The notes under the pieces are model-generated. The model was not told the DNA's origin. It saw only the letters and a list, made by a program, of their open reading frames with translations, and made no database searches. Positions 1 to 12,128 of a stretch of 12,128 nt of DNA are shown here, one piece after another. Both the position numbers and the translations under genes were made by a program. This DNA is from a virus (lineage: Duplodnaviria; Heunggongvirae; Uroviricota; Caudoviricetes): positions 1 through 12,128 of the IMG/VR virus record IMGVR_UViG_2778261502_000010. One strand, 5' to 3'. Position 1 is the first letter of the stretch. The number at the start of each line of letters is the position of its first letter.

Positions 1-1164
1 TTACGCCTTCTTTATATCCTCCATAATTCCAGAGTGGGACATATTTGGGACATTATCACCAAAAATGTCGTCTATTTTCCTCGCATGCTCTGTCAAATGA
101 TTAGGCGCAAGGTGAGCATACCTACGAACCATTTCTATGGACTCCCATCCGCCCATTTCCTGAAGCACTGATAATGGGACGCCTGACTGAATCAGCCAGC
201 TTGCCCAGGTGTGTCTGAGGTCATGGAAACGGAAATCTTCAATTCCTGCACGACGACAAGCTGATAGCCATGATGTCTTGCTGTCGATGCGCATCTTCCT
301 GACCGCAGGCGTTGATGTTCCATCTGCTCGCTTAGCCGCCTTGGTATGTACAAACACCCATTTGTGATGCTTGCCTATTTGATCACGCAACACTTTACAG
401 GCGGTATCGTTCAGCGCCACACCAATGGCGCGGTTTGATTTGCTCTCTTCTGGATTCACCCAGGCAACTCGTCGCTGCATGTCGATTTGTTGCCATTCCA
501 GATTTATGATGTTCGACTTTCTCAGACCAGTTGCCAGCGCAAACTTGACGACAGATTTCAGTGGTTCGGGGCACTCATCAATAAGGCGTTTTGCTTCCTC
601 CTTTTCCAGCCATCTGACTCGCTTGTTTCTGACCGCTGGTATCTTGATGACAGGCGCTTTTTCCAGCCACTTCCAGTCGCGTTCTGCAGCACGGAGAATG
701 GCCTTTATCATGGCAAGATGCTTTGCCTTTGTCTGAGTTGATACTGGCTTTGGTTCATAAACAGGCAGTTCTTTACCTTTCCTGATGGCGGCCTGAACTT
801 TCTGTTTCCATATTTCTTTCGTCTTTCTGTTATGCATTCTGCTTACAGCAGAGTAAATCTTTGCCTCCGAGATATCTTTAAGCCTTATACCCTCAAAATG
901 TTCAAGCCAGAACTCAATCCGGCTTTTATCTGAATCGAGAGATTTTTTATCAGCTTTTTCCTCAAGCCATCTTAGGCAGGCCTCTTCAAAAGTGACATCA
1001 GGTAAATCCCCTAGCTTTTCTACTCGCTAGAGTTCTGCTTTTCGCTTGTCGTGCAACTCCTGAGCTTGCCGCTTGTCCTTTGTGCCAAGAGATTCCTTAA
1101 TTCGTTTCCCGCCCGGGAGCGAATACGAGGCATACCATATTTCATTTCTGCGGAAGAGTGACAT
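1..1164 (-). pseudogene. int: P22-type tyrosine integrase, full 388-codon frame present but interrupted by an in-frame amber (TAG) at codon 46
   Basis: Minus-strand translation from the ATG at 1164-1162 gives [45 protein letters not shown], then a stop (plus-strand cta at 1027-1029), then [24 protein letters not shown]... continuing in the same frame to the stop at 1-3. It is colinear with P22 Int as recalled from memory, including the C-terminal [11 protein letters not shown]...MVRRYAHL catalytic region. The stop sits where P22 has Trp (TGG to TAG). Confidence 0.8.
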
Positions 1165-1391
1165 TTTCTTTCCTCTGTTATGCCATCACCCGCGCTCACC
1201 TGGACAGTATGCAGCGGAGACTGAAGCGCCGCAATGCAGGCTTGCCGTGTTGTGAGGTAAGGAGATTTTGGCTTGGTTGGATCTTTACGTGTTGCCTGTA
1301 GGCGGCCTGTTCGTATCCAGTTGGTGGCGGTTGGTCTGGATATCTTAAGAAACTGACAGGCCTCATCGAGTGTGAGGCTGTATGATTCCAT
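1020..1391 (-). CDS. xis: Excisionase, P22 Xis-like (123 aa); 3' end overlaps the int start out of frame
   Basis: Translation begins [56 protein letters not shown], matching P22 Xis from memory. The ATG at 1391 is the likely start; the ORF-track extension to 1454 is upstream leader read in frame. Confidence 0.8.
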
Positions 1392-1534
1392 GGTTAGCTT
1401 TGGTGGTGTGTGTGAGTCGTAGTCCTGAACGAAAACACCCCACGATTGGCTCATTTGCAGCTAATCCGGATTCGCACTTCCGGCCAATGCTTCGTTTCGT
1501 ATCACACACCCCAAAGCCTTCTGCTTTGAATGCT

Positions 1535-1565
1535 GCCCTTCTTCAGGGCTTAATTTTTAAGAGCA
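1535..1565 (-). promoter_or_regulatory. nutL: nutL-like N-utilisation site (boxA TGCTCTTAA, boxB GCCCTGAAGAAGGGC) in the PL leader
   Basis: The minus strand reads GATGCTCTTAAAAATTAAGCCCTGAAGAAGGGCAGCATTCAAAGCAGAAGGCTTTGGGGTGTGTGATACGAAACGAAGCATTGG, which matches the lambda nutL/N-leader sequence from memory. The boxB inverted repeat is visible directly. Confidence 0.75.
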
Positions 1566-1610
1566 TCACCTTCAATGGTGGTCAGTGCGTCCTGCTGATG
1601 GCTTAAAATT

Positions 1611-1677
1611 ACAAGAAAGATTGTATGTTGTAAACAAGAAATATTGTGAAAGGGGCATGAAAAACAAACTCCATTGT
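1611..1677. promoter_or_regulatory. Left operator OL1-OL3 (three 14-bp 434-type sites) with the leftward PL promoter
   Basis: Three 14-mers of the form ACAA-N6-TTGT: ACAAGAAAGATTGT (1611-1624), ACAAGAAATATTGT (1634-1647), ACAAACTCCATTGT (1664-1677). Same family as the OR sites found upstream of cI. Confidence 0.8.
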
Positions 1678-1727
1678 TTTTAAACGGAAAATAGTTTGTT
1701 TTTTGGTTATCGAGATTGAGGTGGGGA

Positions 1728-3084
<1,357 letters not shown>

Positions 3085-3092
3085 GACATTCC

Positions 3093-3124
3093 CGCTCTTA
3101 CACATCCCAGCCCTGAAAAAGGGC
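3093..3124 (+). promoter_or_regulatory. nutR: nutR (boxA CGCTCTTA, boxB GCCCTGAAAAAGGGC)
   Basis: CGCTCTTACACATCCCAGCCCTGAAAAAGGGCATCAAA read directly; matches lambda nutR from memory. Confidence 0.8.
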
Positions 3125-3150
3125 ATCAAATTAAACCACACCTATGGTGT

Positions 3151-3170
3151 ATGCATTTATTTGCATACAT
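3151..3170 (+). terminator. tR1-region hairpin between cro and cII
   Basis: GTATGCA-TTTATT-TGCATAC inverted repeat (7-bp stem) at the position of the lambda tR1 region. Confidence 0.45.
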
Positions 3171-3189
3171 TCAATCAATTGTTATCTAA

Positions 3190-3230
3190 GGAAATACTTA
3201 CATATGGTTCGTGCAAACAAACGCAACGAG
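3190..3230 (-). promoter_or_regulatory. PRE establishment promoter with CII site TTGC-N6-TTGC (minus strand TTGCGTTTGTTTGC at 3213-3226)
   Basis: The CII recognition repeat is read directly on the minus strand overlapping the cII 5' end, as in lambda. Confidence 0.65.
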
Positions 3231-3497
3231 GCTCTACGAATCGAGAGTGCGTTGCTTAACAAAATCGCAATGCTTGGAACTGAGAAGACAGCGGAAGCTG
3301 TGGGCGTTGATAAGTCGCAGATCAGCAGGTGGAAGAGGGACTGGATTCCAAAGTTCTCAATGCTGCTTGCTGTTCTTGAATGGGGTGTCGTTGACGACGA
3401 CATGGCTCGATTGGCACGACAAGTTGCTTCGATTCTCACCAATAAAAAACGCCCGGCGGCAACCGAGCGTTCTGAACAAATCCAGATGGAATTCTGA
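3204..3497 (+). CDS. cII: CII transcriptional activator (97 aa), lambda type
   Basis: MVRANKRNEALRIESALLNKIAMLGTEKTAEAVGVDKSQISRWKRDWIPKFSMLLAVLEWGVVDDDMARLARQVASILTNKKRPAATERSEQIQMEF is near-identical to lambda CII from memory. Confidence 0.93.
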   Translation: MVRANKRNEALRIESALLNKIAMLGTEKTAEAVGVDKSQISRWKRDWIPKFSMLLAVLEWGVVDDDMARLARQVASILTNKKRPAATERSEQIQMEF

Positions 3498-3519
3498 GGT
3501 CATTACTGGATCTATCAAC
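3443..3519 (-). ncRNA. oop: oop antisense RNA (about 77 nt), overlapping the cII 3' end
   Basis: The minus strand reads GTTGATAGATCCAGTAATGACCTCAGAATTCCATCTGGATTTGTTCAGAACGCTCGGTTGCCGCCGGGCGTTTTTTATT, matching lambda oop RNA from memory, with a terminal GC hairpin and U-tract. Confidence 0.6.
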
Positions 3520-3529
3520 AGGAGTCATT

Positions 3530-4429
3530 ATGACAAATACAGCAAAAATACTCAACTTCGGCAGAGGTAACTTTGCCGGACAGGAGCGTAATGTGGCAGA
3601 TCTCGATGATGGTTACGCCAGACTATCAAATATGCTGCTTGAGGCTTATTCAGGCGCAGATCTGACCAAGCGACAGTTTAAAGTGCTGCTTGCCATTCTG
3701 CGTAAAACCTATGGGTGGAATAAACCAATGGACAGAATCACCGATTCTCAACTTAGCGAGATTACAAAGTTACCTGTCAAACGGTGCAATGAAGCCAAGT
3801 TAGAACTCGTCAGAATGAATATTATCAAGCAGCAAGGCGGCATGTTTGGACCAAACAAAAACATCTCAGAATGGTGCATCCCTCAAAACGAGGGAAAATC
3901 CCCTAAAACGAGGGATAAAACATCCCTCAAATTGGGGGATTGCTATCCCTCAAAACAGGGGGACACAAAAGACACTATTACAAAAGAAAAAAGAAAAGAT
4001 TATTCGTCAGAGAATTCTGGCGAATCCTCTGACCAGCCAGAAAACGACCTTTCTGTGGTGAAACCGGATGCTGCAATTCAGAGCGGCAGCAAGTGGGGGA
4101 CAGCAGAAGACCTGACCGCCGCAGAGTGGATGTTTGACATGGTGAAGACCATCGCGCCATCAGCCAGAAAACCGAATTTTGCTGGGTGGGCTAACGATAT
4201 CCGCCTGATGCGTGAACGTGACGGACGTAACCACCGCGATATGTGTGTGCTTTTCCGCTGGGCCTGCCAGGACAACTTCTGGTCCGGTAACGTGCTGAGT
4301 CCGGCCAAACTCCGCGACAAGTGGACCCAGCTCGAAATCAACCGTAACAAGCAACAGGCTGGCGTGACAGCCGGAAAACCAAAACTCGACCTGACAAACA
4401 CTGACTGGATTTACGGGGTGGATCTATGA
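3530..4429 (+). CDS. O: Replication initiator O (299 aa), lambda type
   Basis: [66 protein letters not shown]... is near-identical to lambda O from memory; the ori iterons lie inside it. Confidence 0.93.
3878..3964. repeat. ori-lambda: four ~19-bp iterons (ATCCCTCAAAACGAGGGA-like) followed by an A/T-rich unwinding region to about 4010
   Basis: Four tandem imperfect repeats: tcatccctcaaaacgaggga / atcccctaaaacgagggata / catccctcaaattgggggat / tatccctcaaaacaggggga, then acaaaagacactattacaaaagaaaaaagaaaag. Confidence 0.85.
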
Positions 4430-4593
4430 AAAACATCGCCGCACAGATGGTTAACTTTGACCGTGAGCAGATGCGTCGGATCGCCAACAACATGCCGGAA
4501 CAGTACGACGAAAAGCCACAGGTATTTGATACCAGACCTCTCCGCGCCGCCATGATTGTCTTTCTCCTGATGCAGGAGGCCAATAATGCTTAG
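4426..4593 (+). pseudogene. P: Truncated replication protein P: first ~33 codons lambda P-like, then unrelated sequence and a stop
   Basis: The ATG overlaps the O stop (ATGA at 4426-4429). [33 protein letters not shown] matches the lambda P N-terminus from memory, then [22 protein letters not shown] and TAG at 4591-4593. Lambda P is ~233 aa and there is no room for it before rusA. Confidence 0.75.
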
Positions 4594-4803
4594 CCCATCT
4601 CAATCCCTTCAATACCTGAAAGGAAGCATAGAGCGGGCTTCAATGTGCACAGAGTGGATTCTATCTAGGTTTAGCGCATACAGAAGATTGCCGGTAAAGG
4701 GCATGCCAAGCAAGTCGATGCTGCATATGCAAAAGAATGCGCGCTGGAAGGTATGGCGAGAACGCAGGTTATCTGGCTGAAAGAGGGGGTAATTAAGGCG
4801 TGA
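4586..4803 (+). pseudogene. nin-region remnant: NinF-like N-terminus running through frameshifts into a YbcO (DUF1364)-like C-terminus
   Basis: The ATG at 4586 opens [14 protein letters not shown]... (lambda NinF starts [10 protein letters not shown] from memory). In another frame 4675-4803 reads [42 protein letters not shown], resembling the YbcO C-terminus. No continuous frame exists; the reference sequences are recalled from memory. Confidence 0.45.
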
Positions 4804-5162
4804 ATACTTACCACATCACACTACCCTGGCCGCCGAGCAATAACCGCTACTACCGCCATAATCGAGGGCGCACGCACGTCAGCGCAGAGGGGCAGGCATA
4901 CCGCGATAACGTCGCCCGAATCATTAAAAACGCAATGCTGGATATCGGCCTGGCTATGCCTGTGAAAATCCGCATTGAGTGCCACATGCCGGATCGCCGT
5001 CGCCGTGACCTGGATAATCTGCAAAAAGCCGCTTTTGACGCACTCACTAAAGCAGGTTTCTGGCTGGATGATGCTCAGGTCGTTGATTACCGCGTTGTGA
5101 AGATGCCTGTTACCAAAGGTGGGAGGCTGGAACTGACCATCACCGAAATGGGGAATGAATGA
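4800..5162 (+). CDS. rusA: RusA Holliday-junction resolvase (GTG start)
   Basis: [120 protein letters not shown] matches E. coli RusA from memory. Confidence 0.93.
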
Positions 5163-5299
5163 TGTTTGAGTTTAATATGGCAGAACTTCTTCGCCACCGC
5201 TGGGGGCGTCTGCGCTTATATCGTTCCCCCGGTTCTGTTTTGACCGATTACCGAATACTGAAGAATTACGCCAAAACCCTGACAGGAGCAGGAGTATGA
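5159..5299 (+). CDS. ylcG: YlcG-like small protein (46 aa), start overlapping the rusA stop
   Basis: [46 protein letters not shown] translated directly; resembles DLP12 YlcG from memory. Below the length cutoff of the ORF track. Confidence 0.65.
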
Positions 5300-5384
5300 A
5301 GTCAGAGATAACAATCAACTAATACTGTTTTGTTGATTTTTGCTTGTAATTGGCGTTCTGGCCTGATTTTTGTGGAGTAAGTTG

Positions 5385-5768
5385 ATGCGTGATATTCAGA
5401 TGGTTCTTGAGCGTTGGGGAGCGTGGGCGGCTAATAATCATGAAGATGTGACCTGGTCGTCCATTGCCGCCGGTTTTAAGGGATTAATTACTTCAAAAGT
5501 AAAATCTCGCCCGCAATGTTGTGACGATGACGCGATGATTATTTGCGGGTGCATGGCCCGTCTGAAAAAGAACAACAGCGATTTGCACGATTTATTAGTA
5601 GATTATTATGTAGTCGGTATGACATTCATGTCACTGGCAGGTAAGCATTGCTGCTCTGATGGTTATATCGGGAAAAGGTTACAGAAGGCTGAGGGCATAA
5701 TTGAAGGGATGTTAATGGCATTAGATATCCGGTTAGAGATGGATATCGTTGTTAATAACTCTAATTAA
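5385..5768 (+). CDS. Q: Q-family late-gene antiterminator (QuuD-like, 127 aa)
   Basis: [62 protein letters not shown]... with Cys-rich zinc-binding-like motifs, in the Q position downstream of rusA/ylcG. The ATG at 5385 is preferred over the TTG at 5370. Confidence 0.85.
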
Positions 5769-5780
5769 TATGCCAGTTGT

Positions 5781-5819
5781 TTACTAAAAATTATTAAAAA
5801 TGGGGCGTTGCAACGCCCC
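5781..5819 (-). terminator. Rho-independent terminator for the convergent porin transcript
   Basis: Perfect palindrome GGGGCGTTGCAACGCCCC (5802-5819) followed on the minus strand by ATTTTTAATAATTTTT. Confidence 0.6.
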
Positions 5820-5906
5820 CAAAAATAAAGGGTAATATATAACAGAAGGTTTATATAGTTAGAAGCAAGGTTGTGCTCCTAAAGGAAGTGGCTTGAGGGA
5901 GCCACT

Positions 5907-5948
5907 TATATGTTGGGGAGGCAAAGCCTCCCGCAACATATCTTTTTC
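5907..5948 (+). terminator. Rho-independent terminator downstream of Q (candidate end of a short PR'-type transcript)
   Basis: ATATGTTGGGGAGGC-AAA-GCCTCCCGCAACATAT (about a 15-bp stem with one bulge) followed immediately by TCTTTTTCG on the plus strand. Confidence 0.55.
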
Positions 5949-5957
5949 GTAATCAGA

Positions 5958-7055
5958 TTAGAACTGGTAAACCAGACCTACAGCAACGATGTCATCAGTG
6001 CTTACACCGAGTGCTTTAGTGAAGTCATTTTTGTCAAGCAGGTTGATTTTGTAATCAACGAAAGTAGACATATTTTTGTTGAAGTAATAGGTTGCACCTA
6101 CATCAACATATTTGACTAAGTCCTGATCGCCCCATACTCCAAGATCCTTACCTTTAGATTGCAGGTAAGCAACGGACGGACGCAGACCGAAATCGAACTG
6201 ATATTGTGCAACAGCTTCGAAGTTTTGAGCTTTATTAGCAACGAAGTGATCAGCAAATACAGTCATATTCTGGGTTTCAGAATAGGTAGTGGCCAGGTAA
6301 ATGTTGTTAGCGTCATATTTCAGACCTGCGGCCCAAACTTCTGCATTTTTACCGGAAGCAAATACTTCAGGAAGAACTTTCCCTGCATTAACTTGAGTGT
6401 CGGTACGATCAGATTTCGCATAAGTTGCACCGATACCGAATCCTTCGTATTCATAGGTAGCAGAGAAACCGAAGCCATCACCGTTACCTTCGGTGTAGTT
6501 ATCGAAATCGCTACGATCGTTTTTGCCTTGGTACTGAGCAGCAAAGTTCAGACCATCAACCAGACCAAAGAAGTCGTTGTTACGATAGGTTGCAACACCA
6601 GTGGTGCGACCAGTCATGAACACATCTGTTTGGGTCCAGGTATCGCCACCGAATTCTGGCAGAACGTCAGTCCACGCACCGATGTCGTATGCTACACCGT
6701 AGTTACGGCCGTAATCGATGGAGCCGTAGTCACCGAATTTCAGGCCAGCGAAGGCAAGACGGGTTTTATCTTTGGAGGAACCTTGAGATTCAGCGCGGTT
6801 GCCTTTGAATTCATATTCCCACTGACCGAAACCAGTCAGTTGATCGTTGATTTGGGTTTCACCTTTGAAGCCAAGACGGGCATAAGTAGTATCACCATCA
6901 TCTGCATCATTAGAGGAGAAGTAGTGCTTAGCATTAACTTTCCCGTACAGATCCAGCTTGTTACTGTCTTTATTATAAATTTCAGCTGCCTGAGCAGACA
7001 TCGCCATCAGTACTGATGCAGCTACAGCAGAAATTGCCACTGTTAATTTTTTCAT
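5958..7055 (-). CDS. nmpC: General diffusion porin, NmpC/Lc (OmpC/OmpF/PhoE family), intact 365 aa with signal peptide
   Basis: [40 protein letters not shown]... and a C-terminal ...VAVGLVYQF beta-barrel signature with a terminal Phe. It sits convergent to Q and upstream of the holin, as for lc in phage PA-2 and nmpC in DLP12. Confidence 0.93.
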
Positions 7056-7483
7056 CGTGAGCCCTTTTTTTTGAACTATTATTAAAAAATGATGTCACTG
7101 CGCGATAAATATTCATCTAATCAATATGATTATTTCAAGATGTAAGTTTTGGTTTCTCGTTTGATTTGTGAAGTAGATCTCTATTTTTATCTGAACTTTT
7201 TTCTATCGAATCCTATTCATGGCTCTTGGCTGAATAAAAATAAATCTATTAGCCAATTTATATTAACGGTTGTTATTTATAAGTGCTCTATGATTTGAAG
7301 GTTCAATTTAAATCGGCTAAAAATAACACTGGGAATTATTTGTTGGTTATTTGTTGAGATTTGCTTATGTATTTGTAGTGGTGTTTTCAATACTCGGTAG
7401 CATTCTCGCAAATATCATTTAGTGGTTTACGTACGTAAAAAATTGGTTATGCTGTTAAGAGTGGTTACTTCGTCACACAGCTT

Positions 7484-7516
7484 AAACCCGCCGTCGAGTG
7501 GGTTTTTCCATTTTTT
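7484..7516 (+). terminator. Rho-independent terminator about 110 bp upstream of the holin gene (tR'-like)
   Basis: AAACCCGC-CGTCGA-GTGGGTTT stem-loop followed by TTTTTCCATTTTTT. Confidence 0.6.
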
Positions 7517-7628
7517 GAGTCTCGATATTAGCTGATAACCCAATACCTGAGTTATTCACTGACTCCGAGTCTGTTACGTTTCGTAGTATTCCCTCAATTT
7601 ACACCCGCTTTGTCTGCGAGGTGGGGTT

Positions 7629-7844
7629 ATGAAATCCATGGATAAGTTAACAACGGGTGTCGCCTATGGCACCTCAGCAGGTAGTGCCGGGTACTGGTTT
7701 TTACAGCTGCTAGATAAAGTCACGCCCTCACAGTGGGCGGCAATTGGAGTGCTGGGTAGCCTGGTATTTGGCCTGCTGACGTACCTGACAAACCTTTATT
7801 TCAAGATTAAAGAAGATAAGCGCAAGGCTGCGAGAGGTGAATAA
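7629..7844 (+). CDS. S: Class II holin/pinholin, phage-21 S-like (71 aa), dual-start motif MKSM
   Basis: [71 protein letters not shown]: two transmembrane segments and a charged C-terminus; matches S21/EssD from memory. Confidence 0.9.
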
Positions 7845-8341
7845 TGCCTCCATCATTACGAAAAGCCGTTGCTGCTGCTATTGGTGGCGGAGCAATTGCT
7901 ATAGCATCAGTGTTAATTACTGGCCCAAGTGGTAACGATGGTCTGGAAGGTGTCAGCTACATACCATACAAAGATATTGTTGGTGTATGGACTGTATGTC
8001 ACGGGCATACAGGAAAAGACATCATGCTCGGTAAAACGTATACCAAAGCAGAATGCAAAGCCCTCCTGAATAAAGACCTTGCCACGGTCGCCAGACAAAT
8101 TAACCCGTACATCAAAGTCGATATACCGGAAACAACGCGCGGCGCTCTTTACTCGTTCGTCTACAACGTGGGTGCTGGCAATTTCAGAACATCGACGCTT
8201 CTTCGCAAAATAAACCAGGGTGATATCAAAGGCGCATGTGATCAGCTACGGCGCTGGACATACGCTGGCGGTAATCAATGGAAAGGACTGATGACTCGCC
8301 GTGAGATTGAGCGTGAAGTCTGTTTGTGGGGGAAACAATGA
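7844..8341 (+). CDS. R: SAR endolysin (phage-21 R / RrrD-type lysozyme, 165 aa)
   Basis: The start overlaps the holin stop (TAATG). The N-terminus [27 protein letters not shown] is a Gly/Ala-rich signal-anchor-release segment, followed by a lysozyme domain matching R21/RrrD from memory. Confidence 0.93.
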
Positions 8342-8796
8342 GCAGAGTAACCGCGATTATCTCCGCTCTGGTTATCTGCATCATCGTCTGCCTGTCATGG
8401 GCTGTTAATCATTACCGTGATAACGCAATCGCCTACAAAGAGCAGCGCGATAACAAGGCCAGTGAACTGGAGAAGGCGAACGCCACCATCGCTGACATGC
8501 GGAAGCGTCAACGTGATGTAGCAGAACTCGACGCAAGATACACAAAGGAGCTTGCTGATGCTAACGCGACTATCGAAAGTCTCCGTGCTGATGTTTCTGC
8601 TGGGCGTAAGCGCCTGCAAGTCGCCGCCACCTGTGCAAAGTCAACGACCGGAGCCAGCGGCATGGGCGATGGAGAAAGCCCAGGACTTACAGCAGATGCT
8701 GAACTCAATTATTACCGTCTCCGAAGTGGAATCGACAAGATAACCGCGCAGGTTAACTACCTGCAGGAATACATCAGGACGCAATGCCTGAAATAA
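8338..8796 (+). CDS. Rz: Rz i-spanin (inner-membrane spanin subunit)
   Basis: The ATG overlaps the endolysin stop (ATGA at 8338-8341). It has an N-terminal transmembrane segment [23 protein letters not shown], a coiled-coil-like charged region, and Rz1 embedded in the +1 frame. Confidence 0.85.
8552..8743 (+). CDS. Rz1: Rz1 o-spanin lipoprotein embedded in the +1 frame of Rz
   Basis: ...[26 protein letters not shown]...: a lipobox-like LGVSAC followed by a proline-rich segment, entirely within Rz. The exact start (Met1 or Met3) is uncertain. Confidence 0.7.
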
Positions 8797-8827
8797 TTTT
8801 TTTGCAAATCACAAAGTCCATTTAATG

Positions 8828-8852
8828 AGCCTCGCGATGCGGGGCTTTTTTT
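8828..8852 (+). terminator. Rho-independent terminator after the lysis cassette
   Basis: AGCCTCGC-GAT-GCGGGGCT (8-bp stem with one G-U pair) followed by a run of 7 T. Confidence 0.7.
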
Positions 8853-9001
8853 ACATCTGAATTTCACAGCGCATCTCACGCGCATATTACATCACCCGAG
8901 CCTTTCAGAAAGTTGAGCCTGAGAACTGCCGTATATGGTGGCGACCATCTCGGGGCGGCTTTTCTGTGAGACAGGCTCACTTTCTAAAAGGTAAAGACGC
9001 T

Positions 9002-9490
9002 ATGAACCAATTAGAAGAAAAGCTTCAAAGAATGATTTCCTTATACAAGGAAGATAACTGCCAAAAAGTTCCTGAAAACATCGCAGAGTTAATGGAATTG
9101 GCAAGTGAATTTTCTGGCATGCTTAAGTCGTCAGGTGTTCGGTCAGCGTTCTTTGTTGAAATGCTGATGCACGGCGGACTTATGGCAACAATGAGACGTG
9201 TAATGGAAGACCAGAGAAAAGAACCTCCTCAGGTATACGTTTTGTCATCGAAGAAAACTGGGCTAACCAAAATTGGGTATTCATCCAACATTCCACAACG
9301 CATCAAATCGCTTGGCAACTCTGGACCAGACTGCTTGAAGCTTGAGTGCCTGATCCCTGGTGGAAGAGAAACTGAAAACATGCTTCATCGCAAATTTGCC
9401 GCAAAGAGAAAGCACGGTGAATGGTTCGCCCTGTCCAAGGATGACATTGAGGGATTGAAATCTGTAGCGATTACTTCTGATGGCTATTAA
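9002..9490 (+). CDS. Hypothetical protein with a C-terminal T5orf172 / GIY-YIG-like domain (162 aa from the ATG at 9002; alternative GTG at 8966)
   Basis: The C-terminal half PQVYVLSSKKTGLTKIGYSSNIPQRIKSLGNS...LKLECLIPGGRETENMLHRKFAAKRKHGEWFALSKDDIEGLKSV fits the T5orf172 pattern (VYVL...KIG...R...L......E..LH..F...R..GEWF). The N-terminal ~80 aa are unassigned. AAGG lies about 10 nt upstream of the ATG at 9002. Confidence 0.6.
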   Translation: MNQLEEKLQRMISLYKEDNCQKVPENIAELMELASEFSGMLKSSGVRSAFFVEMLMHGGLMATMRRVMEDQRKEPPQVYVLSSKKTGLTKIGYSSNIPQRIKSLGNSGPDCLKLECLIPGGRETENMLHRKFAAKRKHGEWFALSKDDIEGLKSVAITSDGY

Positions 9491-10168
9491 TGCTTGTTTA
9501 GAGCAATTTTCATAACAACTCTTCATTACAAAGCCCATCTACTGGTGGGCTTGATAATGAAACCGTGATTTACATCCCCACAATCCGGGTATGTAAAAGA
9601 TAGTTCAGGCGAGAACGGATTTAACTAAATCTGTGCGCCACCAGTTAACGGCAGTACCACGAAACAACCCAAGCCAGTAAGTGGGGAAATAACACCGGCA
9701 GCCACTGAAAGATGAACCTCCTGCCTTATGGCAAAAAAGATTCTTTGTGGTGGCGGACTGATGGAAAGACATCCTAATTTCAGCCAAACATTGAAGGAGT
9801 TGTTATGTCAGCAGAAGGTTTCAATAACCCATCAAAATTCCGGGATGAGTGGGATAGCAGCGTAAAGAGTAAGTGATGCCATCACAAAAGCCATTCCCTA
9901 CAGAGTGGCTTTGATAATGGCTTATACCCTACACGGGATAACTTAACTGATATCCCTTTTAAAGGATAAAGGTATTCAAGCCTGACACATCATGCGCTGT
10001 ATCGTCGCCGTATTCCCGTATTAACAGAGACCGTAGCCCGACGGGGAACTCCTTCTGCGCGAGTGTGCGGGAATAATCAAAAACGATGCACACCGGGGTT
10101 ACCGGGTACACATATTTCATCATGCCAGCGAGTCCGGTTCTGGCACGGAAGAAACCGGACGTTATGAT

Positions 10169-10579
10169 TTAGTGCGGAAATATTTGTGTAGTGTTCTGAA
10201 TGTTCTCAGTAAAGAGTAATGAATTATCAAAGGTATAGTAATACCTTTTGTTTTCGTGGATATTTGTAATCCATCTGAAAACCCCTGCTGTAGCAAGATT
10301 TTTCCTGTATTCGTAAAATGATAACTCTCCTGATTTGAATCCTTTTAATGTGGCTTCTATAAGGCATTTATTTTTTGAAAATCTTACATTTACAACCTTA
10401 CCCTGTCCTTTTATTAAAACCGTATTATCGTTTTCAAGAACAAGATGAATATTCTCTGTGGCTAAATAGTAAATGTAATGTGAGACATTGTGACGTTTTA
10501 GTTCAGAATAAAACCAGTGATAGTTTAAATTATTTCGCACTTTATCGAATATTTGTTTAAAAATGGCAACCTGAGCCAT
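10169..10579 (-). CDS. ybcV: YbcV-like protein (DUF1398 family), 136 aa from the MAQVAIF start
   Basis: [58 protein letters not shown]...[38 protein letters not shown] resembles DLP12 YbcV from memory. GAAGG lies upstream of the second ATG; the first ATG is at 10594. Confidence 0.7.
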
Positions 10580-10636
10580 TGTAGTACCTTCCATGTGATA
10601 TGAGGGTACCTAGTCTGCACGATTATCTAAATTGCT

Positions 10637-10870
10637 TCAATCTGGTCTGACCTGCTTTCTGAGCAATTCAGTAATGTCACTCTTTTCTTTGTTTGCTTCA
10701 GGCGAAACTCTTTTTTCTGAGCACAGTCTTCGGCGGCAGGCTTCAATGACCCAGGCTGAGAAGTTCCCAGACCCTTTTTGATCAAGAGCGATGTTAATTT
10801 GTTCAATCATTTGGTTAGGAAAGCGGATGTTGCGGGTTGTTGTTCTGCGGGTTCTGTTCTTCGTTGACAT
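10637..10870 (-). CDS. ylcI: YlcI-like small basic protein (DUF3950-like, possible ribbon-helix-helix DNA binder), 77 aa
   Basis: MSTKNRTRRTTTRNIRFPNQMIEQINIALDQKGSGNFSAWVIEACRRRL...: basic N-terminus followed by a beta-helix-helix-like pattern; it lies directly upstream of and co-oriented with the ybcV-like gene. Confidence 0.6.
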   Translation of the reverse strand: MSTKNRTRRTTTRNIRFPNQMIEQINIALDQKGSGNFSAWVIEACRRRLCSEKRVSPEANKEKSDITELLRKQVRPD

Positions 10871-11069
10871 GAGGTTGTCCCGTATTCAGTGTCGCTGATT
10901 TGTATTGTCTGAAGTTGTTTTTACGTTAAGTTGATGCAGATCAATTAATATGATACCTGCGTCATAATTGATTATTTGACGTGGTTTGATGGCGTAGATG
11001 CACGTTGTGACATGCAGATGATAATTATTATCATTTTGCGGGTCCTTTCCGGCGATCCGACAGGTTACG

Positions 11070-11257
11070 GGGCGGCGACCTCGCGGGTTTTTGCTATTTA
11101 TGAAAATTTTCCGGTTTAAGGTGTTTCCGTTCTTCTTCGTCGTAACTTAATGTTTTTATTTAAAATACCCCTGAAAAGAAAGGAAACGACAGGTGCTGAA
11201 AACGAGCTTTTGGGCCTTTGTCGTTTCCTTTCTCTGTTTTTGGCCGTGGAATGAACA
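11070..11257. other. cos: cos site: cosN 12-nt cohesive-end sequence GGGCGGCGACCT (11070-11081) and the cosB terminase-binding region up to Nu1
   Basis: ...GGTCCTTTCCGGCGATCCGACAGGTTACG|GGGCGGCGACCTCGCGGGTTTTTGCTATTTATGAAAATTTTCCGGTTTAAGG... matches the junction of the lambda right and left ends from memory. Confidence 0.88.
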
Positions 11258-11803
11258 ATGGAAGTCAACAAAAAGCAGCTGGCTGACATTTTCGGTGCGA
11301 GTATCCGTACCATTCAGAACTGGCAGGAACAGGGAATGCCCGTTCTGCGAGGCGGTGGCAAGGGTAATGAGGTGCTTTATGACTCTGCCGCCGTCATAAA
11401 ATGGTATGCCGAAAGGGATGCTGAAATTGAGAACGAAAAGCTGCGCCGGGAGGTTGAAGAACTGCGGCAGGCCAGCGAGGCAGATCTCAAGCCAGGGACT
11501 ATTGAGTACGAACGCCATCGACTTACGCGTGCGCAGGCCGACGCACAGGAACTGAAGAATGCCAGAGACTCCGCTGAAGTGGTGGAAACCGCATTCTGTA
11601 CTTTCGTGTTGTCGCGGATCGCAGGTGAAATTGCCAGTATTCTCGACGGGATCCCCCTGTCGGTGCAGCGGCGTTTTCCGGAACTGGAAAACCGACATGT
11701 TGATTTCCTGAAACGGGATATCATCAAAGCCATGAACAAAGCAGCCGCGCTGGATGAACTGATACCGGGGTTGCTGAGTGAATATATCGAACAGTCAGGT
11801 TAA
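11258..11803 (+). CDS. nu1: Terminase small subunit Nu1 (181 aa), lambda type
   Basis: [71 protein letters not shown]... is near-identical to lambda Nu1 from memory. Confidence 0.93.
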
Positions 11804-11960
11804 CAGGCTGCGGCATTTTGTCCGCGCCGGGCTTCGCTCACTGTTCAGGCCGGAGCCACAGACCGCCGTTGAATGGGCGGATGCCAATTACTATCTCCCG
11901 AAAGAATCCGCATACCAGGAAGGGCGCTGGGAAACACTGCCCTTTCACCATCACCGTTAA
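11778..11960 (+). pseudogene. A: Terminase large subunit A, N-terminal ~55 codons only, truncated by a deletion
   Basis: [56 protein letters not shown] matches the lambda gpA N-terminus from memory, then HHHR and TAA at 11958-11960. The ~640-aa remainder is absent. Confidence 0.85.
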
Positions 11961-12027
11961 CGCTGCTGGTAACGCGGAAAACACCGTCAAAAACATCGCA
12001 TTTAACTATATTGTGAGGCTTGCATAA
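11948..12027 (+). pseudogene. stf: 3'-terminal fragment of a side-tail-fibre gene (Stf C-terminus) fused to the terminase stub
   Basis: The frame ending at TAA 12025-12027 reads ...[24 protein letters not shown], the typical C-terminal tail of lambdoid side tail fibre proteins, immediately followed by the tfa start. Confidence 0.55.
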
Positions 12028-12128
12028 TGGCATTCAGAATGAGTGAACAAGCACGGACCATAAAAATTTATAATCTGCTGGCCGGAACTAATGAATTTAT
12101 TGGTGAAGGTGACGCATATATTCCGCCT
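12027..12128 (+). CDS. tfa: Tail fibre assembly protein, N-terminal part (runs off the window end)
   Basis: ATG at 12027, then [33 protein letters not shown], matching the Tfa N-terminus (TfaD/TfaE-like) from memory. Confidence 0.85.

Follow-up and report, generated by a model that had tools for sequence, protein, structure and literature searches.

A 5,211-bp deletion between TAAC repeats in the PL operon and the probable stepwise decay of a DLP12-family prophage with 434-type immunity

The stretch of DNA analysed here (the window; 12,128 bases) is identical to positions 5576-17703 of L006, the terminal part of contig NLUV01000033.1 from an NCBI draft assembly of E. coli (GCA_002233275.1). 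The last base of the window is the contig end, short of the right end of the prophage. On the other side, the window is flanked by the sfm fimbrial operon, fimZ and the tRNA-Arg(UCU) gene argU (L006 5484-5560; tRNA-Arg(tct) in the ARAGORN output), the same flank as in K-12, with a gap of 15 bp between argU and the window. The integrase gene reads towards argU, and its stop codon forms the start of the window at L006 5576. The following features were located.

1-1164, minus strand: intD-type (P22/DLP12-type) tyrosine integrase, a pseudogene with an amber codon at position 46 (TAG at 1027-1029); Phage_integrase, E = 6.7e-47.
1020-1391, minus strand: xis, a full-length ORF of 123 aa plus stop, overlapping the int start; 81% identical to SfI Xis and 100% identical to the ORF of the undeleted relative (L001, see below).
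1393-1396, minus strand: junction of deletion 1, a 4-bp microhomology TAAC (GTTA on the plus strand), from blastn against L001 and a three-way alignment.
1397-1599, minus strand: remnant of the PL/N leader (lambda/434 type), ending 16 nt before the would-be N ATG; from alignment with lambda, 434 and L001.
1535-1564, minus strand: nutL, with boxA (GCTCTTAA) and the boxB hairpin GCCCTGAAGAAGGGC (1535-1549); exact pattern, annotated as nutL in the 434 and lambda records.
1606-1677, minus strand: PL -10 region and the 434-type operators OL1 (1611-1624), OL2 (1634-1647) and OL3 (1664-1677); ACAAN6TTGT matches, with oL1-3 and pL annotated in 434.
1728-2132, minus strand: Hex-like ORF of 134 aa, at the position of the 434 gene annotated as 'repressor protection protein' (OL657226).
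2129-2761, minus strand: cI repressor of the 434 type, full length, with the S24 autocleavage domain (Peptidase_S24 is listed for the called gene).
2797-2855, plus strand: OR3 (2797-2810), OR2 (2820-2833) and OR1 (2842-2855), with PR and PRM; operator matches and 434 annotation.
2869-3084, plus strand: cro of the 434 type; matches 434 Cro in PDB (1ZUG/2CRO), E = 1.4e-42, residues 1-71.
3094-3124, plus strand: nutR, with boxA (GCTCTTA) and boxB GCCCTGAAAAAGGGC; exact pattern, boxA right and nutR being annotated in 434.
4426-4593, plus strand: fusion ORF of 55 aa, P(1-33) joined to the C-terminus of NinX, with the junction at 4524|4525 resulting from deletion 2.
5385-5768, plus strand: quuD-type Q antiterminator, intact; Phage_antitermQ, E = 3.5e-53, 118 of 118 profile positions.
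5958-7055, minus strand: OmpC/NmpC-type porin of 365 aa, uninterrupted, between quuD and the lysis cassette.
8966-9490, plus strand: nuclease-like ORF of the GIY-YIG/T5orf172 family, downstream of the lysis genes, where K-12 DLP12 has borD.

The element has the hallmarks of the DLP12 family. It is integrated next to argU, which according to Lindsey et al. (1989), as cited in PMC9119081 and PMC6379469, is the attachment site of the K-12 cryptic prophage DLP12; its integrase is of the IntD (P22-like) type; and its late region runs rusA-ylcG-quuD-nmpC-type porin-essD-rrrD-rzpD-nohD, the Pfam families of the called genes being in agreement. Immunity is of the 434 type: cI and Cro have the 434 specificity, both OL and OR contain three 14-bp operators of the ACAA-N6-TTGT type, and lambda-type cII and O are located downstream of the immunity region. 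The repressor matches the 434 repressor structures in PDB (1PER/1R69) over residues 2-70 with E = 9e-38, and the C-terminal domain of lambda cI with E = 2e-26. OR2 and OR1 were found by the exact pattern, OR3 (ACAAGAAAAACTGT) was placed by alignment with the 434 annotation, and a PR-like promoter is situated at 2813-2841. A scan of the whole window at gathering thresholds yielded no Rfam families, nut sites not being Rfam families. We assign the window to a DLP12-family lambdoid prophage with 434-type immunity, residing at argU of E. coli in an advanced state of decay, and predict that it can be neither excised (int amber codon), nor replicated (P deleted), nor packaged (large terminase subunit truncated at 11947).

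The start of PL transcription was placed at 1599 (the A of ATCAGCAGG) by identity with the lambda PL start (lambda 35582) and from the pL annotation of the 434 record. From this point, the window aligns nearly base for base with lambda, phage 434 and L001 through nutL to ...AAAGCTAAC. The three reference sequences continue with TGACAGGAGAATCCAG ATG GAT GCA, which is the ribosome-binding site and start of N, whereas the next bases in the window are C ATG GAA TCA TAC AGC..., the start of xis. Phage 434 and lambda imm434 share with the window OL1-3, PL, nutL and the N leader (95.5% identical to phage 434), but in phage 434 and lambda the leader leads into the N ribosome-binding site and N, and in the window into xis. 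The preliminary description of this DNA had proposed precisely such a junction of a lambda-like PL leader, extending through nutL, with a P22-type xis start; alignment with lambda, 434 and L001 bears this out to the base, the crossover falling within the TAAC at 1393-1396, with a leader that is lambda-derived and no intact N in the interval.

Both nut sites carry boxB of the lambda specificity (no boxA-boxB match arose by chance in 200 shuffles), and nutR is followed by an intact lambda-type tR1 region, up to cII. An N gene directly downstream of nutL is absent, and tblastn with the lambda, 434 and EM18 N proteins found no N homologue in the window, all matches being at the chance level (best 24.6 bits); the best match, at 8891-8998 (32% over 37 aa), was set aside as a chance one. 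The nut sites are therefore left without an N gene in the window, as had been suggested, and, since the defining gene of the system was searched for and is absent from the window, this is not a functional N/nut system. N may come in trans from another prophage, the source genome having been examined on one contig.

An undeleted prophage occupies the same argU locus in E. coli EM18-18-42 (NZ_CP063473, 1168713-1188241; referred to as L001), where the corresponding sequence is spread over 19.5 kb. The window is 100% identical to it over 1-1396, which includes int with its amber codon and xis, and about 99.8% identical over 1393-4524 and 4513-11947; the locus and the immunity type are the same. 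By blastn, window positions 1-1396 correspond to L001 3001-4396, and 1393-4524 to 9604-12730, so that exactly 5,211 bp (L001 4397-9607) are missing. Unlike the window, the EM18-18-42 prophage keeps this N-to-DUF4222 segment, the 2,378-bp P-nin segment and the full terminase and head genes; on the other hand, quuD has a frameshift there, and cro has lost its ATG through a 4-bp deletion at the start of the gene.

Across the junction, the minus strand of the window reads ...CACACACACCACCAAAGCTAAC|CATGGAATCATACAGCC..., and the parental sequences are ...AGCAGAGGTAAC|CATGGAA... on the xis side and ...CCAAAGCTAAC|TGACAAGAG... on the N side, with only TAAC common to both at the crossover. Leaving the TAAC repeat aside, the deleted segment (5,207 bp) has no match anywhere in the window. 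According to the L001 annotation, the deletion involves 13 genes, N through DUF4222: N, DUF2528, cIII, kil, gam, bet, exo, DUF1317, DUF1382, a TraR/DksA-family gene and DUF4222, as well as one hypothetical gene and an 870-bp gene whose 434 homologue is annotated with a Nun C-terminal peptide. Thus, the comparison with L001 confirms the loss of N, cIII, kil, gam, bet and exo, noted earlier, and extends it by seven further genes. The likely event would be a single illegitimate recombination between two TAAC copies, of which one preceded the N start by 16 nt and the second lay just ahead of the xis start.

If, alternatively, the P22-type int-xis module of one prophage had been joined by mosaic recombination to the 434/lambda early region of another, the two halves would come from different elements. 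Lambdoid phages are indeed mosaics, and a search of the phage collection matched each half of the query to different phages, with both halves in none of them. However, EM18-18-42 and at least eight other complete genomes hold both halves in one argU prophage, in the same orientation and at 98-100% identity, which makes a mosaic origin very unlikely. As both halves are collinear in argU prophages of other genomes, loss of the intervening 5,211 bp is the simplest history, and we retain the deletion as the preferred reading.

The deletion-1 allele is private to the source strain. The junction-spanning site was found in none of 5,426 complete E. coli genomes and in none of 50,697 phage records, an exact-pattern scan for the junction gave no hits in IMG/VR, in the GTDB representative genomes or in the JGI metagenomes, and the gene-position index has the 144-aa ORF that spans the junction on one contig only. 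The allele is probably recent.

The int lesion is not private in this sense, as the same stop is present in L001, where the PGAP note reads 'internal stop'. It changes codon 46 from TGG to TAG; the residue is W46 in both K-12 IntD and HKUOPY1 Int, and otherwise the translation matches both, the difference from K-12 IntD amounting to this stop and one C-terminal residue. The gene callers report only a C-terminal int ORF of 278 aa (1-837). Because the stop is common to the undeleted relative, the prophage was probably locked in the chromosome already, and excision was most likely lost before the N deletion, an order suggested by the shared stop. Instead of descending from a shared ancestor, the stop could also have been exchanged between the lineages by recombination.

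We next consider what the deletion would mean for xis and int. The xis ORF contains the Pfam domain HTH_17 (E = 1.2e-8) and is labelled P22-type because of its nucleotide identity of about 90% to P22-like Salmonella phages. The distance from PL +1 to the xis ATG (1391) is 208 nt, compared to 222 nt from PL +1 to the N ATG in lambda. In the undeleted phage xis and int already belong to the PL operon, hence what has changed is their distance from the promoter and the removal of terminators. A simple scan for hairpins followed by a T-run, blind to Rho-dependent termination, found no minus-strand terminator in the window between PL and the end of int, whereas in the deleted segment of L001 the same scan detects six minus-strand sites (with both strands counted, 7 of 11 sites fall within this segment), e.g. 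8387-8370, 7806-7787 and 4985-4967. Since the terminator-like hairpins between PL and the end of int are gone, PL transcription would be expected to reach xis-int without N. Likewise, after loss of the 434-type repression, presumably on SOS induction, transcription of xis-int would not need N.

The products are a different matter. The junction removes the Shine-Dalgarno sequences of both N and xis: the native context of the xis start, AGAGGTAACC ATG, becomes AAAGCTAACC ATG, and the energy of the duplex with the anti-Shine-Dalgarno sequence changes from -7.1 to -0.1 kcal/mol. The gene callers choose instead the in-frame leader ATG at 1454, which gives an ORF of 144 aa and whose Shine-Dalgarno match is weak (-3.3 kcal/mol); the called 'HTH_17 protein' of 144 aa is consequently a chimeric ORF made by the junction. 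Some Xis could be produced from a weak, Shine-Dalgarno-independent start or from the in-frame start at 1454. As xis is left without a ribosome-binding site and int has an amber codon at position 46, transcription of xis-int probably yields little or no functional product. The earlier proposal that xis and int were placed under direct PL control is thus consistent with the loss of terminators as far as transcription is concerned, but does not extend to the proteins, given the lost Shine-Dalgarno sequence of xis and the int amber codon.

One might suppose that the deletion was kept for the sake of Xis, possibly in its 144-aa form, acting as a host regulator under direct 434-cI control, SOS-inducible and independent of N. 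If this were the case, the toxic PL genes (kil, gam, N) would have been purged and the Xis regulator retained. TorI and AlpA are examples of prophage excisionases that were recruited as regulators, and the locus shows a full-length xis ORF next to a broken int, no remaining terminator-like signals between PL and xis, and intact cI, OL and PL. Against that, the same event that would have created the arrangement destroyed the ribosome-binding site of xis, and the ATG at 1454 offers just the weak match mentioned above; moreover, the undeleted relative has an xis ORF that is just as intact, and the junction, confined to one strain, gives no sign of spread or conservation. We consider such domestication highly improbable, and decay of the prophage through deletion remains the preferred reading.

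Could two prophage fragments have been wrongly joined during assembly? The source assembly is a draft, the window reaches a contig end, and sequences of the xis/int and lambda types recur in many E. coli genomes. Nevertheless, an overlap of 4 bp is too short for a false join in a k-mer (de Bruijn) assembly, the contig is continuous over the sfm operon, argU, int and xis and reaches the immunity region without interruption, and an independently built Logan contig from SRR3957146 (L007) spans the junction, being 100% identical to the window over 1355-7044. An assembly artefact is therefore extremely unlikely. A laboratory construct, in which the N leader would have been joined to xis via an NcoI site, has next to no probability: CCATGG does span the xis ATG exactly at the junction, and 434-immunity/lambda hybrids are classical laboratory phages, but the site is native, with GGTAACCATGGAA at the xis start of both L001 and SfI, the element has natural flanks and lies at argU within a chromosomal contig, and the short or imperfect microhomologies at the other two deletions are typical of spontaneous events.

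The deletion in the PL operon is accompanied by two more. The second one (2,378 bp; exact microhomology at the breakpoint of only 2 bp, TA) has removed P, ren, a tR2-type terminator, ninB, a methyltransferase gene, ninE and most of ninX, so that the 55-aa ORF following O is a P-NinX fusion and an artefact of the junction. In L001, the gap between ren and ninB contains a strong hairpin with a T-run, AGGCCTGCTGGTAATCGCAGGCCT-TTTTATTT (13646-13669), which is absent from the window. The hairpin is annotated as 'terminator' in the records of phages 434, 21 and O276, and we take it to be lambda tR2. In lambda, removal of tR2 by nin deletions makes Q expression independent of N. No strong plus-strand intrinsic terminator-like site is left in the window between PR and quuD, and read-through of a partially efficient tR1 could reach Q. 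The preliminary description had expected transcription from PR to stop at tR1, limiting O and Q; this is part of the picture, but it overlooks the second deletion with its loss of the tR2-type terminator, P, ren and most of the nin region. Lytic growth is predicted to be blocked by the loss of P and the morphogenesis genes, and not by the loss of N alone.

The second deletion resembles the nin5-type deletions of lambda in the loss of the strong intrinsic terminator between ren and ninB. It differs from them in that nin5 keeps P and gives a viable phage, whereas the deletion in the window starts at P codon 33 and would abolish replication. Hence it does not belong to the nin5-like class, defined by the loss of tR2 with the replication genes kept.

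At the third junction (11947|11948), the large terminase subunit is truncated after about 56 codons, and the remaining part of the window, 11948-12128, is a fragment of the tail-fibre C-terminus/tfa matching E. coli HKUOPY1 (L002 18249-18431) at 100% identity. The breakpoint at 11947 differs from those of K-12 DLP12 and HKUOPY1. That it might be common to K-12 DLP12 was rejected by direct inspection, K-12 continuing like the intact terminase.

One of the closest known systems is DLP12 itself; DLP12 and 'grounded' prophages form an established class (PMC9119081; the 'grounded' concept is reviewed in PMC6379469). K-12 DLP12 occupies the same argU site, is 99.8% identical to the window at the nucleotide level over window positions 1-1259, and has the same gene order rusA-ylcG-quuD-porin-essD-rrrD-rzpD-ybcV-ylcI-nohD with 96-98% nucleotide identity; both elements lack most morphogenesis genes, and the one in the window is predicted to be defective, as DLP12 is. 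On the other hand, the whole immunity region is gone from K-12 DLP12, which carries IS3, IS5, emrE and ybcK-M, whereas the window keeps the 434-type cI-cro-OL-OR block, cII and O, and has three breakpoints of its own. In K-12, xis is truncated (the similarity ends at window position 1259) and joined to an exo fragment, and nmpC is disrupted by IS5; in the window, xis is full length and the porin gene is uninterrupted. Similarity to K-12 is also absent between approximately positions 8607 and 9993 of the window.

Taken together, the junction, the gene content and the near-identical relative point to the stepwise decay of a DLP12-family prophage with 434-type immunity, in which the PL operon was shortened by a TAAC-mediated deletion of 5,211 bp; we estimate the probability of this reading at about 0.88. 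The likely order would be the int nonsense mutation first, then the N-exo deletion, then the P-nin deletion, and then the loss from the terminase to the tail fibre, with the morphogenesis genes. Each deletion would have removed functions (kil, N-dependent early expression, in-situ replication) that are lethal upon induction of a non-excisable prophage. The repressor module, the Hex-like gene, the porin, rusA, Q and the lysis cassette were spared. It is plausible that selection favoured the three losses, although both the order and the advantage are deduced from a single undeleted relative.

A laboratory parallel is available: induction of a trapped lambda prophage kills the cell by in-situ replication, and the survivors carry lesions in O or P, including deletions (PMC3640518). 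These replicative-killing-resistant survivors from the Hayes laboratory resemble the window in having a non-excisable prophage with P inactivated. They were, however, obtained by laboratory selection on lambda cI857 fragments, whereas the window comes from a natural isolate, for which we only infer selection.

What is new here is a deletion allele; it belongs to a cryptic prophage of a well-known kind and does not amount to a new regulatory arrangement or mechanism, and nothing in the element is categorically new. Thanks to the near-identical undeleted relative, it provides a cleanly resolved natural case of stepwise prophage disarming, and the locus may be used as a data point in studies of prophage domestication, being of little importance beyond annotation.

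Several minor observations concern the immunity region. In 434, the annotation of Hex states that it protects the repressor from RecA-dependent cleavage; the Hex-like ORF of the window has no Pfam match, and the ORF lister gives a longer version of it (158 aa, 1728-2204), which overlaps cI. The C tract at 2781-2789 in the cI leader, near the pRM start, comprises nine C in the window, eight in EM18-18-42, seven in HKUOPY1 and five in phage 434, which could be a progressive expansion or a sequencing artefact. Finally, comparison of window positions 2836-2868 with phage 434 shows a change of the PR -10 region from TATGAAAAT to TATAAAAAT and of the cro Shine-Dalgarno sequence from GGAGG to GGGGG.
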